Source: a virus | Lineage: Duplodnaviria; Heunggongvirae; Uroviricota; Caudoviricetes | Virus record (IMG/VR): IMGVR_UViG_2636415477_000010 | Reading direction: 5' to 3' (one strand) | DNA length: 33,307 nucleotides | Shown: positions 5,064 to 22,688 of the stretch, piece after piece | Position numbering within the stretch: position 1 is the first letter of the stretch | Layout of the letters: every line of letters starts with the position of its first letter | The notes under the pieces: generated by a model | What the model was told of the DNA's origin: nothing | The model's input: only the letters and a program-made list of their open reading frames with translations | The model's database searches: none | Program-made: the position numbers and the translations under genes

Positions 5064-5115
5064 ACATGGTGATAATAGCTATTGCTATTGGCTGTATCAA
5101 TACTTATTGCTATTG
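5064..5115 (-). promoter_or_regulatory. Putative pL promoter with operator boxes (oL)
   Basis: On the minus strand: -35 TTGATA (plus 5095-5100), 17-nt spacer, -10 TATTAT (plus 5072-5077); two copies of ATTGCTATT at 5081-5089 and 5106-5114, 25 bp apart, overlap it. Confidence 0.5.
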
Positions 5116-5240
5116 ATTGATGTGTTTTGATATTAACTGTTTGATAGCAAAAAGAATTAATTTTGTGACTTGTATCGCATAGCGATAACTGAAGGGAGGA
5201 TGTGGTGGTTTTTCGAACGGTTTGTGTGATGAGGGGACAA

Positions 5241-5265
5241 AAGAAAACCCGGCACGGTGGCCGGG
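5241..5265 (-). terminator. Intrinsic terminator ending the cI-linked two-gene operon
   Basis: Perfect 6-bp stem CCCGGC/GCCGGG (5248-5253 and 5260-5265) with 6-nt loop; on the minus strand it is followed by TTTTCTT (plus 5241-5247); sits 5 nt after the stop of the 125-aa gene. Confidence 0.6.
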
Positions 5266-5269
5266 ATTC

Positions 5270-5647
5270 TTACGCAGGTAGGTAAAGATATGATTGTGGT
5301 GGCTTAATATTACTACCTAGAGCAGAGATAGGAATTGGTTCTTTATATCTTTCCACTTCACCAATTTTTATTGCGTAGGCCTTTTCTCTACCTGAATAAT
5401 ATGAGTCATAAAATTGCTTAGAAATACCTGCGTGTTTTTCCGTCTTTTTCCAAAGAGATTCCGGTTCGTCACTTAGTATTGATTCAATACGGAATTGACC
5501 AACAACTTTACCTAATGGCATCGTGGCATAAATAACAACGGTGCTAATTTGCGGATTTTTGAATATACCTTTACGAAACTCGAACCGCTTTGTTCCGTTC
5601 AATATTTTTTCTGCAAACTCAGGCTTAATGGATAATAAAACTTTCAT
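5270..5647 (-). CDS. ASCH-like (PUA-fold) small protein, second gene of the AT-rich immunity-region module
   Basis: 125 aa; N-terminus MKVLLSIKPEFAEKILNGTKRFEFRK resembles the ASCH signature as I recall it; overlaps the 3' end of the upstream gene by 23 nt; visibly AT-rich. Confidence 0.6.
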   Translation of the reverse strand: MKVLLSIKPEFAEKILNGTKRFEFRKGIFKNPQISTVVIYATMPLGKVVGQFRIESILSDEPESLWKKTEKHAGISKQFYDSYYSGREKAYAIKIGEVERYKEPIPISALGSNIKPPQSYLYLPA

Positions 5648-6698
5648 TTATCTTGCCTAACTCGATGATCTTTAAGAACTGCTCATTTGTGAGTTTAAAG
5701 TGACTCCATCGGAATGCACGCGAACCATTTAGCCCCACATGATCTATTAAAATAGCACGATTGGGTCTCTTTGACAAAGACAGATTGTATGTGAATCTTA
5801 TAATGAAAGGGTATCGACGTTCTTTATAGATTTTTCTGAGTTCATCTTCAGAAAATACGCTAAAACGAATACAATAGTCTACAAAACTATCTTCGCTTAA
5901 AAATTCAGAAATATTTTTTACGCTCTCAACTACACATAATGTACTGGCTACAGAACGATAGCGAGCTGGCCCTTTTTTGTCTCCGGTTCTATAGATGACA
6001 ATGATATCTCCTCTTTTCATTCCCATCACAGAACGCATTCCACATATGTAAATTTTATGAATGCTGTTAGCATGGGATATATCTTTGACAATATCTGGTG
6101 ATTCATTTACAAGTTTTGAATCAGGGAATAGTCTAGTGTGATATTCGGGATAAATCGCCAGTAAATATTTGTTGGCCCTTGATGTCATTATTCGAGGGTA
6201 ATCTAATAAAATATCACCATAAGGCTCATGCAAAGACCTCGCATATACAAACTCTTTCCCGTTATGTGTTTCTTTTTCACCATGAATGTAAAATCCGTAC
6301 GTTTGGAAAAGTTTTATTAGATGGACGTGTTTGTCGAAAACAGTAACATAAATATCATCAGATTTTGATGAAAATGCATGGTCAAACGCTTTTTTTAGAA
6401 ATCGTTGTCCGCGAAGGGTGCCTTTAGATTCAAATTTGAATGTTCCTATCTTTAGATGACGTCCTGGTGGGAGCGCTGGATTAATGTCATTTGCATCATC
6501 ATTTTCTTTTAGATACATAAAACCTTCGATTTTATGCTTGTCATCATAGAGCACATAAGCTGATTCTCCTTCTCTGGCTTTTTTTTCTAACCAAAGAGGA
6601 AACTCTTTATAATCTTTTTTTAAAGAGTCAAAAAATGGGTCATTGTGATCAAAATCAGAGAATTTCTCATATTTTAAAGTATCCATTAAGTTCTCCAT
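5625..6698 (-). CDS. Two-domain protein of unknown function with possible GNAT-like N-terminal half and PUA/ASCH-like C-terminal half; first gene of the AT-rich module downstream of cI
   Basis: 357-aa ORF with ATG at 6698; alternative ATG at 6686 has GGAG 6 nt upstream; segment DDIYVTVFDKHVHLIKLFQTYGFYIHGEK resembles the GNAT beta5-alpha4 motif; segment IYICGMRSVMGMKRGDIIVIYRTGD resembles PUA-like barrels; domain calls are by eye only. Confidence 0.6.
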   Translation of the reverse strand: MENLMDTLKYEKFSDFDHNDPFFDSLKKDYKEFPLWLEKKAREGESAYVLYDDKHKIEGFMYLKENDDANDINPALPPGRHLKIGTFKFESKGTLRGQRFLKKAFDHAFSSKSDDIYVTVFDKHVHLIKLFQTYGFYIHGEKETHNGKEFVYARSLHEPYGDILLDYPRIMTSRANKYLLAIYPEYHTRLFPDSKLVNESPDIVKDISHANSIHKIYICGMRSVMGMKRGDIIVIYRTGDKKGPARYRSVASTLCVVESVKNISEFLSEDSFVDYCIRFSVFSEDELRKIYKERRYPFIIRFTYNLSLSKRPNRAILIDHVGLNGSRAFRWSHFKLTNEQFLKIIELGKINESFIIH

Positions 6699-6766
6699 TC
6701 TAAAATGAATAATTAAGTTGTTTTACTGAATGAGCACAATGCCCGGTTGATAATTTTTAATTGGTA

Positions 6767-7459
6767 CTATCCATGCTTCCTATACGTCTGCGGCATGCTC
6801 CCAATAACTTTCCCGAAGATAAATACCCGGTTCATCTCATCTTTCTCGATCGGGTCCCACGGTGAGTAGCTTTTGTTATCAGAGATAACCAGCAGCTTAT
6901 CCTTCATCATTTGCAGGCGCTTTACATGGGCTGTGTCGTCGTACAGAAACGCATAGATACCATCACCGTCGAAAGATTTAACCGTGATATCAACGAATAG
7001 AAGATCACCAGGTTCAATCGTTCCTGACATGCTGTCACCGCGTACGTTAATGATGCGGATATTTTCTGCCTTCCTACCATCGAACATGTGACGAGCATCG
7101 TCAAACGAGTACTCAACCGAGCGTAGAACTTCTACAAACTCACGGTTGATGACTCCCGGCCCGGCACTCACTTCTATATCAAGAACGTCAATCTTGAAGT
7201 ATTTGGGATGGTTGGCAGTAGGCTTCCCTAATTGTTGACCGTCATTTCTCATCGGGCCTATGCCTGATGAGAGCCACTCTGTTCGAACACCCAATGCATT
7301 AGCTATTTCAACAATTTTTGTTGAGCCGCGCGCGTTGCCGCTTGTCAGTCTCCAGATTGTGGGTTGAGCTACGCCAGACGCCTTTGCAAGAGCGCCTTGA
7401 GACATTCCAGATTGTTCCATCGCTAGGTTTAAGCGATCAGCAAGAGTTTCTTTTTTCAT
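6767..7459 (-). CDS. cI: CI-type prophage repressor (N-terminal HTH, C-terminal LexA-like S24 autopeptidase domain)
   Basis: The track ORF to 7495 starts with TTG; first ATG at 7457-7459 gives MKKETLADRLNLAMEQSGMSQGALAKASGV... (HTH), with the C-terminal NVRGDSMSGTIEPGDLLFVD...KRL pattern typical of S24 self-cleaving repressors. Confidence 0.85.
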   Translation of the reverse strand: MKKETLADRLNLAMEQSGMSQGALAKASGVAQPTIWRLTSGNARGSTKIVEIANALGVRTEWLSSGIGPMRNDGQQLGKPTANHPKYFKIDVLDIEVSAGPGVINREFVEVLRSVEYSFDDARHMFDGRKAENIRIINVRGDSMSGTIEPGDLLFVDITVKSFDGDGIYAFLYDDTAHVKRLQMMKDKLLVISDNKSYSPWDPIEKDEMNRVFIFGKVIGSMPQTYRKHG

Positions 7460-7569
7460 AAGTTTTAATTTATACGCTTGCGTATTGATGGTCAAAACAC
7501 GTTTTGCTATTGTTATGATTAATACGCATTGCTATTATTTATTCATTGTAATACCAATAGGAATTAATA
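7460..7569. promoter_or_regulatory. Divergent pRM/pR control region with operator boxes (oR)
   Basis: Two boxes TTTGCTATT (7503-7511) and ATTGCTATT (7528-7536), 25 bp apart; candidate pR -35 TTGTTA (7510-7515), 17-nt spacer, -10 TATTAT (7533-7538); AGGA ribosome-binding site before cro. Confidence 0.55.
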
Positions 7570-10447: not shown

Positions 10448-10780
10448 ATGAACCCTTATATTTATCTTGGTGGTGCAATACTTGCAGAGGTCATTGGTAC
10501 AACCTTAATGAAGTTTTCAGAAGGTTTTACACGGTTATGGCCATCTGTTGGTACAATTATTTGTTATTGTGCATCATTCTGGTTATTAGCTCAGACGCTG
10601 GCTTATATACCTACAGGGATTGCTTATGCTATCTGGTCAGGAGTCGGTATCGTTCTGATTAGTTTGCTTTCCTGGGGATTTTTTGGTCAACGACTGGACC
10701 TGCCAGCTATCATAGGCATGATGTTGATTTGTGCCGGTGTGTTAGTCATTAACTTGTTGTCACGAAGTGCACCGCATTAA
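10448..10780 (+). CDS. emrE: Small multidrug resistance efflux transporter EmrE
   Basis: 110 aa from the ATG at 10448 (AGGAAAGA upstream); MNPYIYLGGAILAEVIGTTLMKFSEGFTRLWPSVGTII... matches E. coli EmrE as recalled. Confidence 0.9.
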   Translation: MNPYIYLGGAILAEVIGTTLMKFSEGFTRLWPSVGTIICYCASFWLLAQTLAYIPTGIAYAIWSGVGIVLISLLSWGFFGQRLDLPAIIGMMLICAGVLVINLLSRSAPH

Positions 10781-10948: not shown

Positions 10949-11500
10949 ATGAAAAAACTTATCGTTTCAAGTGTATTGGCATTCATAACATTTTCTGCGC
11001 AGGCCGCAGCATTTCAGGTCACTAGTAATGAAATAAAAACAGGAGAGCAACTTACAACGTCTCATGTATTTTCTGGATTTGGGTGTGAAGGGGGTAATAC
11101 ATCGCCCTCATTAACCTGGTCTGGTGCTCCTGAAGGCACCAAAAGCTTTGCCGTAACTGTGTATGATCCAGATGCTCCTACAGGCAGTGGATGGTGGCAC
11201 TGGACTGTTGCTAATATTCCAGCAACTGTAACATATTTGCCCACTGATGCAGGAAGACGTGATGGTACAAAACTTCCGACTGGTGCTGTTCAAGGCCGAA
11301 ATGATTTTGGTTATGCAGGATTTGGTGGAGCATGTCCTCCCAAAGGAGATAAACCCCATCATTACCAGTTTAAAGTATGGGCTCTAAAAACTGATAAGAT
11401 TCCTGTGGATTCTAATTCCAGCGGAGCGTTAGTTGGTTATATGCTTAATGCCAATAAAATTGCAACCGCTGAGATAACACCAGTTTATGAGATAAAGTAG
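10949..11500 (+). CDS. ybcL: Secreted PEBP/RKIP-family protein (YbcL-like)
   Basis: 183 aa with an N-terminal signal peptide (MKKLIVSSVLAFITFSAQAAA); PEBP-like DPDAP...GxWHW...GG.CPP.GDKPHHY motifs. Confidence 0.8.
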   Translation: MKKLIVSSVLAFITFSAQAAAFQVTSNEIKTGEQLTTSHVFSGFGCEGGNTSPSLTWSGAPEGTKSFAVTVYDPDAPTGSGWWHWTVANIPATVTYLPTDAGRRDGTKLPTGAVQGRNDFGYAGFGGACPPKGDKPHHYQFKVWALKTDKIPVDSNSSGALVGYMLNANKIATAEITPVYEIK

Positions 11501-11509
11501 GGTAAGAGT

Positions 11510-12307
11510 ATGCTGGCAAAAGATAAGTCTAACCTAAAGATTGAAGAAATACGGATGCATAAACATCATGAGATTCACAGGGTTAAGCCTCTTATGCCAG
11601 CTTTATGTCGTATCCGTCAGGGAAAAAAAGTTATCAATTGGGAGACGCATAGTCTAACTGTTGATAATAATCAGATAATATTATTTCCCTGTGGATATGA
11701 ATTTTATATTGCGAATTATCCAGAAGCAGGTCTTTATCTTGCAGAAATGCTTTATTATCCCATTGATCTAATTGAAAAGTTTCAAAAATTTTATGCGATA
11801 ACTGATCAAATTCGTAACACGACAGGTTTCTGCTTACCTCAGAACCCCGAGTTAATATATTGTTGGGAGCAACTAAAAACATCTATTTTCCGAGGCTTCT
11901 CAACGCAAATTCAGGAACACTTAGCAATGGGCGTTCTACTTTCATTAGGAGCACATCATGTTAATTGTTTACTTTTATCAGATAGTAAACAATCATTAAT
12001 AAGTCGTTGTTATAACCTAATGCTATCCGAACCTGGAACAAAATGGACAGCAAACAAGGTAGCGAGATATCTCTACATTTCTGTTTCCACATTGCATCGC
12101 CGTCTGGCAAGCGAGGGAATAAGTTTTCAAAGTATATTGGACGACGTGAGGTTAAATAATGCGTTGTCTGCTATACAAACGACAGTAAAACCCATCAGCG
12201 AGATTGCCAGGGAAAATGGTTACAAGTGTCCTTCTCGTTTTACTGAAAGGTTCCATAATCGTTTTAAGATAACACCAAGAGAGCTAAGAAAAGCGTCCAG
12301 AGAGTAA
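11510..12307 (+). CDS. ybcM: AraC-family transcriptional regulator (YbcM-like)
   Basis: 265 aa; C-terminal AraC-type HTH ([21 protein letters not shown]...[32 protein letters not shown]). Confidence 0.8.
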
Positions 12308-12640
12308 AAGTATTTTATGAAGGAGCAACAGCATCGATTTTTATTTTGGAAAATAAATACGGCATACTCAACCTATTGTATCCTGAACAATCCGGTGACT
12401 TCTGCGCTAATCGGGGACGTTTATAAGCACATATAATTGATACTATCTTCCTCCATCACAATTTCAGAAATGCACGTGTGATTTTTTTGCATCCGGCGTT
12501 TGGACTATGTGGAGCTCAAGAGTGGGAAAGTTACAAGAGGTTGAGGGGATAATTAAAGGGATACTTATGACATTAGATATCAGGTTAGGTACGGATATCG
12601 TTGTTATTAAATCTAGTTGATACGTTAATTGTTCACTGGG

Positions 12641-12808: not shown

Positions 12809-13891
12809 TTAGAACTGGTAAACCAATCCTACAGCAACGATATCATCGGTAGCAACGCCAGATGCTTTCGTGAAATCGCTCTTATCAATCAGGTTGATTT
12901 TGTAATCAACAAAAGTGGACATATTTTTGTTGAAGTAATAGGTTGCACCTACATCAATATATTCAACCAGGTCCTGATCACCCCACGCACCCAAGTCTTT
13001 TCCTTTAGATTGCAGGTAAGCAACGGACGGACGCAGACCGAAGTCGAACTGATATTGTGCAACTACTTCGAAGTTTTGTGCTTTGTTGGCAATATGGTTA
13101 TTACCAAAAACAGTCATGTTCTGGGTTTCAGAATAGGTGGTAGCCAGATAGATGTTGTTCGCATCATATTTCAGACCAGCTGCCCATACTTCAGCATTTT
13201 GACCAGATGCATTCAGGCTGTTGTTACCGTAGATAACCTGATCATTAGTGCGGTCAGATTTAGCATAGGTTGCACCTACACCGAATCCTTCATACTCATA
13301 AGTAGTGGAGAAACCGAAACCATCACCGTTAGCTTCAGTTACGTCAGTGCGGTCATTTTTACCCTGATACTGAGCAGCAAAGTTCAGACCATCAACCAGA
13401 CCAAAGAAGTCGTTGTTACGATAAGTTGCAACACCAGTAGTGCGACCAGTCATGAACACATCTGTTTGGGTCCAGGTATCACCACCGAATTCTGGCAGGA
13501 CGTCAGTCCACGCACCGATGTCGTATGCTACACCGTAGTTACGGCCGTAATCGATTGAGCCGTAATCACCAAATTTCAGGCCTGCAAATGCAAGACGGGT
13601 TTTGTCTTTGGAAGAACCTTGAGATTCAGCACGGTTGCCTTTGAATTCATATTCCCACTGACCGAAACCAGTCAGTTGATCGTTGATTTGGGTTTCACCT
13701 TTGAAGCCAAGACGGGCATAAGTAGTATCACCATCATCTGCATCATTAGAGGAGAAGTAGTGCTTGGCATTAACTTTCCCGTATAGATCCAGCTTGTTAC
13801 TGTCTTTATTATAAATTTCAGCTGCCTGAGCAGACATCGCCATCAGTACTGATGCAGCTACAGCAGAAATTGCCACTGTTAATTTTTTCAT
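12809..13891 (-). CDS. nmpC: Outer-membrane general porin, OmpC/OmpF family (NmpC/Lc-like lysogenic-conversion porin)
   Basis: 360 aa with signal peptide [23 protein letters not shown], glycine/aromatic-rich beta-barrel sequence, and the C-terminal ...VGLVYQF ending typical of porins. Confidence 0.9.
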
Positions 13892-14318
13892 TGTACGCCC
13901 TTTTTTTTGAACTATTATTAAAAAATGATGTCACTGCGCGATAAATATTCATCTAATCAATGCGATTATTTCAAGATGTAAGTTTTAGTTTCTCATTTAA
14001 TTTGTGAAGTAGATCTCTATTTTTATCTGAACCTTTTCTATCTAATCCTATTCATGGCTCTTGTTTGAACGAAAATAAATCTATTAGCTAATTTATATTA
14101 ATGGCACTTATTTATAAGCACTCTATAATTCTTTAGCTTAATTTAAACAAACTAAAAATAACATCGGAAATTATTCATTGGTTATTTGTTGAAGTTTTCT
14201 TATGTATTTGTGGTGGTGTTTTGAACACTCGGTGGCATTCTCACAAATATCATTTAGTAGTTTACGTACGTAAAAAATTGGTTATGCTGTTAAGAGTGGT
14301 TACTTCGTCACACAGCTT

Positions 14319-16408: not shown

Positions 16409-16702
16409 TTATTGTGAGCAATACACACGCGCTTCCAGCGGAGTATAAATGCCTAAAGTAATAAAACCGAGCAATCCATTTACGAATGTTTGCTGGGTTT
16501 CTGTTTTAACAACATTTTCTGCACCACCACAAATTTTTGCTGCATCGACAGTTTTCTTCTGCCCAATTCCCGAAACGAAGAAATGATGGGTGATGGTTTC
16601 CTTTGGTGTTACTGCTGTAGGTTTGTTTCCAACAGTAAACGTCTGTTGAGCACATCCTGTAATAAGCATTGCCAGAGCGGCAGAAAACAACATTTTTTTC
16701 AT
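16409..16702 (-). CDS. bor: Bor lipoprotein (serum-resistance protein)
   Basis: 97 aa from the ATG at 16700-16702; MKKMLFSAALAMLITGCAQQTFTVGNKPTAV... matches lambda Bor as recalled. Confidence 0.85.
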   Translation of the reverse strand: MKKMLFSAALAMLITGCAQQTFTVGNKPTAVTPKETITHHFFVSGIGQKKTVDAAKICGGAENVVKTETQQTFVNGLLGFITLGIYTPLEARVYCSQ

Positions 16703-17182
16703 CTTATTATCCTGCATTGTTAAAAACGGCAGAATCCTATGTGACAACAATTAAACGATAGTTAAATGGATTGATGAAAATTAAAACTACACAGGTGGGC
16801 TCAGACTATTGGAGGAAGTTGGGGACACTCAGAATCCTGTGGAATGAAATAAACCGGTCTATCCGTCCATTACCCTTTTAGCTGCGCTGTATCGTCGCCG
16901 TATTCCCGCATTAACCATGACCGTAGCCCGACGGGGAATTCCTTCTGCGTGAGTGTGCGGGAATAATTAAAAACGATGCACACCGGGTTTTTACCGCGTT
17001 AATGATTCGCGGGTTTATCCCGGTGCGATGGTGGAAGAAACAGGAAGCTGTATTACAGAAAGTGCTACTACTGTATCCCGATGCGATGTATGTAATGTGA
17101 GTCAGATAATGGCACAGGATGTGGTGATGTGGCAGTCTGGAACACAGGATATATTGTCAGAATAAGACCCGTAGGAATAAAA

Positions 17183-17509
17183 ATGAAAAGACGCCTTTTA
17201 CTACTTTTTCTGTTATCTGTCCTGGCAGTGGGATGCTCGCAGCAAAAAGCTGATGAGCCCCGGCAATTAGTGACGGTGTATCCACGATATCCGGAATATG
17301 CTGCAGCAAATTATATCAAGGGGCTGGTTGAGGTTAAGTTCGATATTGGTGCTGATGGGACTGTGACACGGATCGTTTTTCTCCGCTCAGAGCCTCATAA
17401 TTTGTTTCGTGATGAAGTGGTGAAGGCCATGGCGAAATGGCGATTTGAAAAGAATCGCCCCTGTCAGGGAGTGAAGAGACAATTTATCTTTACGCCGTCA
17501 CGTCCTTGA
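17183..17509 (+). CDS. Putative lipoprotein with a TonB C-terminal-like region
   Basis: The track ORF begins with GTG at 17129; the ATG at 17183 has AGGAATAAA upstream and gives MKRRLLLLFLLSVLAVGCSQQ (lipobox), followed by YP...A...GxVEVKFDIGADGTV, reminiscent of TonB C-terminal domains. Confidence 0.5.
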   Translation: MKRRLLLLFLLSVLAVGCSQQKADEPRQLVTVYPRYPEYAAANYIKGLVEVKFDIGADGTVTRIVFLRSEPHNLFRDEVVKAMAKWRFEKNRPCQGVKRQFIFTPSRP

Positions 17510-17631
17510 TGCTTCCAGGTAGAGAGGGGCTGGAAGCAGGAGAAAAATGAAAGAGCCAGCGGTTATATTTTTGTCATGGCTGACGAGGAATGATGGAAGA
17601 AGGCGTTGTATGCCACACAACGCCTCACTGT

Positions 17632-19007: not shown

Positions 19008-22688
<3,681 letters not shown>

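Follow-up and report, generated by a model that had tools for sequence, protein, structure and literature searches.

GNAT-fold toxins are known from the toxin-antitoxin systems TacAT, AtaRT, KacAT and ItaRT, whose antitoxin is a DUF1778/ribbon-helix-helix (RHH) DNA-binding protein encoded upstream of the toxin; solved structures exist for TacT, AtaT, KacT and ItaT. DarTG, another toxin-antitoxin pair, acts as an abortive-infection defence. The stretch analysed here, a 33,307-nucleotide Caudoviricetes sequence (IMG/VR record IMGVR_UViG_2636415477_000010; hereafter the window), carries two overlapping genes, gevT and gevA, downstream of a cI-type repressor gene. In lambda, the equivalent slot is occupied by rexAB. 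Judged by its sequence, the pair is almost certainly the GevT/GevA system, which PADLOC lists as the candidate PDC-M11. The two genes make up a self-contained, low-GC cassette of foreign origin, which a lambdoid prophage carries as cargo within its immunity region. We regard it as probable that this cargo is a toxin-antitoxin system expressed during lysogeny, and tentatively propose a writer/eraser logic for it.

Profile searches on both proteins returned the Pfam family ASCH for the small protein and the two PADLOC families for the pair, with E-values of 1.9e-133 (large protein, PDC-M11A) and 6.8e-52 (small protein, PDC-M11B). In Escherichia phage PhiR47_2 (PV340567.1), where the genes likewise lie downstream of cI, the products annotated as 'GevT toxin' and 'GevA antitoxin' are identical to the window proteins at 356 of 357 and 125 of 125 residues, respectively. 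The sole change is S309P; apart from it only the surrounding prophage, a mosaic variant, differs, which is nothing of substance. Position and overlapping architecture are the same and agree with those of the family across bacteria. The combination had been anticipated by Bell, Wolf and Koonin (2020), who reported that (PIN-)GNAT-EVE genes are nearly always paired with an ASCH gene, predicted a toxin-antitoxin function, and found the GNAT-EVE form to be common in beta- and gammaproteobacterial prophages. As relayed in that study, the GNAT-EVE plus ASCH architecture appears earlier in Iyer et al. (2013).

The original prediction, made from the letters of the DNA, had not recognised the pair as a described system and had conceded that a named pair would overturn this view. 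The pair is indeed named, as GevT/GevA in PV340567.1, besides being catalogued in PADLOC and predicted by Bell, Wolf and Koonin (2020), and the claim of novelty has to be given up. To judge from the record set, the names would go back to Brenes and Laub 2025 (Cell Host Microbe). Literature searches on GevT, GevA, GevTA and GNAT-EVE turned up no publication about a system so named, the source of which likely lies outside the literature searched; the DefensePredictor preprint does not mention it, and no description of its biochemical mechanism was found in the accessible literature. With discovery excluded by the existing catalogue entry and name, the locus contributes a corrected gene start, an overlapping operon conserved across phyla and a connection with a published Dickeya data set, where an essential gene had gone unrecognised as that of an 'antitoxin'; the residual interest lies in the mechanism. 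The pair and its immediate surroundings comprise the following features:

5625-6686, minus strand: gevT, putative toxin gene; GNAT domain (approximately residues 1-155) fused to a PUA-like domain of the ASCH/EVE type (approximately residues 165-353)
5270-5647, minus strand: gevA, putative antitoxin gene; ASCH-domain protein of 125 amino acids, GKER octapeptide type, with its start codon 23 nt inside gevT
5625-5647, minus strand: overlap of gevT and gevA, 23 nt in different frames, read from the sequence
6687-6766, minus strand: intergenic spacer between cI and gevT, holding the gevT Shine-Dalgarno sequence

Two overlapping minus-strand genes downstream of cI had been proposed at the outset, and the corresponding open reading frames of 357 residues (5625-6698) and 125 residues (5270-5647) are present with their 23-nt overlap. 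For the larger gene the frame stands as proposed and the start probably does not: a GGAG Shine-Dalgarno sequence at 6696-6693 lies 6 nt 5' of the second ATG (6686), and the protein has 353 residues in RefSeq and in most homologues; therefore gevT most likely spans 5625-6686, four residues fewer than with the start at 6698. The homologue clusters retrieved for the two genes (1630 and 2443, respectively) establish both as real genes rather than chance reading frames. The overlap implies that translation of gevA would be coupled to that of gevT. The pair was also said, by eye, to be about one-third G+C against about half in its surroundings, and the computed values agree: G+C is 0.351 over 5270-6698, with 0.27-0.28 at the third codon positions of the pair, as compared with 0.472 for cI, 0.51-0.52 for the flanks and 0.502 for the whole window.

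The domain assignments of the original prediction, an ASCH-like small protein and a large one with GNAT-like and PUA-like segments, are likewise sustained. GevA matches Pfam ASCH with an E-value of 2.5e-8, and its closest solved relative is ZmASCH from Zymomonas (PDB: 5GUQ; E-value 8e-16, and 4e-20 when the family profile is used). Its GxKxxExR octapeptide is formed by G18, K20, E23 and R25. Residues K20, E23, R25, Y40 and S119 are invariant across 35 GevA homologues, and Y40 and S119 correspond to the nucleic-acid-binding residues Y47 and S128 of ZmASCH. GevT has no match in Pfam. Its AlphaFold model, computed with 40 homologues, is of high confidence (predicted local distance difference test, pLDDT, 85.7; predicted template modelling score, pTM, 0.84) and consists of two domains, an N-terminal GNAT fold and a C-terminal PUA-like domain of the ASCH/EVE type. 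In the GNAT domain, the residues of the cofactor loop and of motif B are invariant (G97, R99, K102, K103 and Y134-G135-F136). In a PDB-wide search with the family profile (E <= 10), this domain was matched only by the polyamine acetyltransferase PaiA, 8OSP and SpeG-like proteins, PaiA being the closest solved relative (1.8e-5). By eye, the position of the GevA octapeptide is taken in the PUA-like domain of GevT by an invariant NSIxKxY motif, in which the Glu is missing; a reader function would agree with this better than an enzymatic one. GevA was also considered as a sequence paralogue of the C-terminal domain of GevT. BLASTP found nothing and hhalign gave 32% probability over 34 columns, and the likeness is one of fold only.

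With TacAT, AtaRT, KacAT and ItaRT, GevTA shares a GNAT-fold toxin, a two-gene operon and residence on mobile elements, and a translation-related target is plausible for it. Membership in this group is nevertheless ruled out. The PDB search at E <= 10 returned none of TacT, AtaT, KacT and ItaT, so that the GNAT domain of GevT is not detectably related to them, and GevT carries an additional PUA-like domain. Its antitoxin, moreover, is no DUF1778/RHH protein from an upstream gene, a place held here by cI, but the ASCH protein of the downstream gene. By analogy, the logic of GevTA would resemble that of DarT/DarG rather than that of TacA/TacT. The likeness to DarT/DarG is confined to this proposed logic, in which the toxin marks nucleic acid and an antitoxin enzyme erases the mark. 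The two systems are not homologous (a PADLOC scan returned PDC-M11 models alone), and DarTG operates by ADP-ribosylation, whereas acyl transfer is proposed for GevTA, with a predicted eraser activity of GevA.

GevA has the same fold as the GKER-type ASCH proteins ZmASCH (5GUQ), TthASCH, EOLA1 and TRIP4, deacetylases of N4-acetylcytidine (ac4C) in tRNA, as well as the GxKxxExR motif and the Tyr and Ser residues that bind nucleic acid. ZmASCH matches the PDC-M11B family (3e-29). Unlike gevA, which is paired with gevT, the ZmASCH gene is solo in the sense that its neighbour is not a GevT homologue: in the Zymomonas mobilis locus (L085:3825-5447), it lies 48 nt downstream of a gene for 375 amino acids, whose product has no match in Pfam or PADLOC and no similarity to GevT. 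ZmASCH as a component of a GevTA system is thereby ruled out, and the 375-aa gene may represent an alternative partner of this ASCH family. RexAB of lambda and Stk of 933W share with gevTA the slot and the cI strand within the immunity region, and presumably expression in the lysogen. They have no sequence or fold relationship with GevTA, and the predicted biochemistry differs. No Rex family was found in the PADLOC, Pfam and PHROG scans.

The pair is common: of 5426 complete E. coli genomes, 275 carry it at 99% identity or more. In a scan of one genome per species, relatives were found in at least 217 genomes from many phyla, and 80 loci with 45-73% identity were retained; these span Gamma-, Beta- and Alphaproteobacteria, Bacteroidota, Firmicutes, Verrucomicrobia, Acidobacteria, Campylobacterota and others. 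All 80 loci with a GevT homologue encode a GevA homologue as well, and in 77 of them gevA follows immediately 3' of gevT, co-directional and overlapping. The modal overlap is exactly 23 nt (44 of 80 loci, from many phyla), and with the start forced to this position, 34 of 35 GevA homologues open with MK[VIL]LLSIKPE. The two proteins have diverged to a similar extent, with mean pairwise identities across loci of 51% and 52% (r = 0.56). The genes upstream of gevT are varied, S24 repressors and AAA_17 ATPases accounting for 6 and 5 of 71 neighbours, respectively. A conserved, overlapping pair in such varied company is therefore an autonomous mobile module, for which the slot beside cI is one context among many. 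A position downstream of cI is ruled out as the general context, given that an S24 peptidase is encoded upstream in only 6 of 71 cases.

Some loci depart from the common arrangement. In one of the 80 loci, gevT is truncated and gevA intact, and the opposite case does not occur; in this Arcobacteraceae locus (L045:6652-7408) the gevT remnant encodes 134 residues, which fits a toxin decaying before its antitoxin. In three loci from Vibrio and Photobacterium (L014, L018 and L023), the ASCH and GNAT genes lie on opposite strands or are separated by as much as 2.2 kb. A family of about 358 residues with a hydrophobic C-terminus adjoins GevTA in 9 of 80 loci (L009, L010, L013, L022, L023, L059, L070, L072 and L074), and in the Dickeya prophage its gene lies between CI and GevT (L083:3893-4969). 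This protein has no match in Pfam or PADLOC and is not encoded in the window; it may represent a third component or co-travelling cargo.

Indications of how the pair behaves come from the same genus. A transposon-insertion sequencing (Tn-seq) study published in 2026 lists four essential genes in prophage 1 of D. dadantii 3937, among them the CI repressor and the ASCH protein Dda3937_01763 (PMC13566846, Table 2); the adjacent GNAT gene is missing from the list (PMC13566846). In strain 3937, the ASCH protein (ADM97071) and a protein annotated 'Acetyltransferase, GNAT family' (ADM97072) bear consecutive accessions. They belong to the 90%-identity clusters that contain the GevA and GevT homologues, and share 64% and 59% of residues, respectively, with their counterparts in the window. 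A related P2/186-like prophage of Dickeya encodes on one strand CI, the 358-aa protein, GevT, GevA and an integrase, which is again a lysogenic operon. An essential downstream gene next to a dispensable upstream gene is the classical signature of antitoxin and toxin, and an essential antitoxin gene implies that the lysogen expresses it. The authors of the study consider Dda3937_01763 an endoribonuclease that might prevent virion production (PMC13566846). The GNAT-EVE gene beside it suggests instead, from the sequences, that it is an unrecognised antitoxin. By analogy with Dickeya, we think it likely that the window pair behaves as a toxin-antitoxin system and that GevT would be harmful without GevA. 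The toxin-antitoxin idea of the original prediction thus gains indirect support from two sides, the names in GenBank and the essential ASCH gene next to an unlisted GNAT gene.

In the mechanism we propose, the pair would be transcribed together with cI from the lysogenic promoter, up to its own terminator just before OL/pL. Expression in the lysogen is argued for by the failure of the scan to find a terminator between cI and gevT, by the terminator after gevA and by the essential antitoxin gene in Dickeya. GevT would dock on nucleic acid via its PUA-like C-terminal domain, and the GNAT domain would move an acyl group from acyl-coenzyme A onto the docked target and thereby arrest growth. The likeliest target would be a base or the aminoacyl group of tRNA or another RNA, DNA being less likely. 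GevA, a GKER-type ASCH protein with an intact Lys/Glu dyad, would counter GevT mainly by removing the mark, and direct binding between the two may contribute to neutralisation. From its context, the pair may serve abortive-infection exclusion of superinfecting phages, stabilisation of the prophage, or both; we lean, by a little, towards an anti-phage role.

Support for an eraser comes from a 2026 preprint, according to which 19 ASCH proteins, ZmASCH included, strip ac4C from tRNA in vitro, and deacetylation by the GKER class requires the Lys/Glu dyad. The invariance of K20, E23 and R25 together with that of Y40 and S119 favours a catalytic antitoxin over a passive binder. We nonetheless put forward the enzymatic-eraser mechanism, which is read from conserved residues, only tentatively, and the writer/eraser reading of the pair as a whole is plausible but unproven. 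A more specific form of it, reversible acylation of nucleobases, in which GevT writes an acetyl group on a tRNA, RNA or DNA base picked by its PUA-like domain and the ASCH deacetylase GevA erases it, appears doubtful.

Several observations weigh against the writer/eraser toxin-antitoxin explanation. According to the same preprint, ZmASCH is inactive on the free ac4C nucleoside and has no significant effect in vivo; it was first described as a single-stranded RNA ribonuclease, and its neighbour gene is not GevT-like. The GNAT domain of GevT has no detectable sequence relation to the tRNA-acetylating toxins, its closest solved relative being PaiA. The Tn-seq evidence concerns proteins 59-64% identical to the window pair, the link between the Dickeya locus tag and the accessions rests on consecutive numbering, and absence from a list of essential genes counts for less than a measured insertion density would. 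Both labels, toxin and antitoxin, come from the GenBank annotation of PV340567.1, and PDC entries of PADLOC are untested candidates, found by 'guilt by embedding' because they lie within restriction-modification, BREX or DISARM loci.

How GevA neutralises GevT divides the eraser mechanism from a type II toxin-antitoxin system, in which GevA would bind GevT stoichiometrically without catalysis and the ASCH fold would be a scaffold, possibly pairing with the ASCH-like domain of GevT. The conserved 23-nt overlap, implying coupled and near-stoichiometric synthesis, and the similar divergence of both proteins across loci are what such binding would lead one to expect. A pure binder, however, needs none of the five residues K20, E23, R25, Y40 and S119 that are invariant across phyla, and solo GevA-like ASCH proteins such as ZmASCH occur without GevT; we therefore hold binding without catalysis to be possible but somewhat unlikely. 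The roles could also be reversed, with GevA as the effector, a single-stranded RNA ribonuclease like ZmASCH that is regulated by GevT. ZmASCH does cut single-stranded RNA in vitro, and the Tn-seq authors call the Dickeya protein an endoribonuclease, but the gene of a toxic effector would not score as essential, and in Dickeya it is the ASCH gene that is essential and the GNAT gene that is unlisted. As GevA is moreover labelled antitoxin in GenBank, this reversal is scarcely credible.

The remaining alternatives concern the purpose of the pair. A module for addiction or stabilisation only, devoid of anti-phage activity, would kill the cell upon loss of the prophage or cassette; the essential-antitoxin signature in the Tn-seq data and the horizontal spread of an autonomous two-gene unit through varied contexts agree with it. 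Such a module would not call for the placement of the pair in lysogenic-conversion slots beside the repressors of two unrelated prophage types, lambdoid and P2/186-like, a slot that rexAB fills in lambda, nor for relatives embedded in defence loci, the basis of the PDC-M11 listing. Addiction and defence are in any case not mutually exclusive, and addiction as the only role strikes us as improbable. Modification of DNA in the manner of Mom, by which GevT would acylate DNA bases against host restriction, GevA would limit or edit the mark and toxicity would be a side effect, can draw on the proposal of DNA base acetylation for GNAT-EVE proteins (Iyer et al. 2013, as relayed by Bell, Wolf and Koonin 2020). 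EVE/PUA-like domains of type IV restriction enzymes read modified DNA bases, and PIN-GNAT-EVE relatives sit within type I restriction-modification loci. A lysogenic cI operon is, however, ill-suited to modifying replicating phage DNA, for which an early or late lytic operon would be expected; many loci lie outside phages, and the closest characterised ASCH relatives act on RNA, which together make this reading decidedly improbable. If the toxin-antitoxin and defence explanation is true, GevTA is another lysogenic-conversion immunity module shaping competition between phages, and with a writer/eraser mechanism a conflict system would connect ASCH deacetylases with a GNAT writer. Should bases indeed be acetylated reversibly, GevT would be the first toxin to use nucleic-acid base acetylation as a weapon, and the orphan 'eraser' activity of ASCH proteins would acquire a physiological role.

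The slot of the pair is defined by the following features of the immunity region:

5238-5265, minus strand: intrinsic terminator closing the cI-gevT-gevA transcription unit (terminator scan and sequence)
6767-7459, minus strand: cI-type repressor gene, helix-turn-helix (HTH) and S24 peptidase (Pfam Peptidase_S24, 1.5e-18, and HTH_3), upstream of gevT on the same strand
7467-7495, minus strand: PRM-like promoter (promoter scan and sequence), its -10 element ending at 7467, 7 nt before the cI ATG
5072-5115, minus strand: pL-like promoter (5100-5072) and two operator-like repeats CAATAGCAATA (OL), which together bound the immunity region on its downstream side

The repressor is labelled cI in near-identical phage records, and cI or XRE/S24 among identical ones. 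Its start is given as TTG 7495 (242 amino acids) in the program-made list of reading frames and as ATG 7459 (230 amino acids) in annotated records; the latter is probably correct. With the -10 element of the PRM-like promoter ending 7 nt from this ATG, a leaderless cI transcript is suggested, as in lambda. Operator-like TTGCTATTG half-sites adjoin the pL-like promoter at 5080-5115, and a related site lies at 7502-7512, in the OR region between the divergent cI and cro. The pair therefore lies inside the immunity region, as does rexAB in lambda, between cI and OL/pL and on the cI strand. The terminator begins 4 nt past the gevA stop codon and consists of the stem CCCGGC (5265-5260), a 6-nt loop and the stem GCCGGG (5253-5248), followed by TTTTCTTTTG. 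Both contextual claims of the original prediction are thus confirmed: the scan and the sequence agree on a clean intrinsic terminator after the small gene, and the slot is equivalent to that of rexAB, with no terminator-like site found by the scan in the spacer 6687-6766 and pL/OL located beyond the pair.

The gevTA stretch is 100% identical to that of a lambdoid prophage adjoining icd in E. coli NRG 857C. The junction of terminator and pL (5200-5270) is kept at approximately 87-96% identity in about 700 complete genomes of E. coli without gevTA, and from its sequence it looks like a common edge of a slot in which lambdoid prophages exchange cargo. No RNA family was detected when the whole window was scanned with Rfam. 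In RefSeq, the identical prophage of NRG 857C is annotated with further cargo, namely an EmrE-type small multidrug resistance (SMR) transporter (window positions 10448-10780), a YbcK recombinase (11036-12562; G+C approximately 0.34), an alpha/beta hydrolase (12912-13955), an OmpC-like porin (16465-17547) and the serum-survival lipoprotein Iss (20065-20358).

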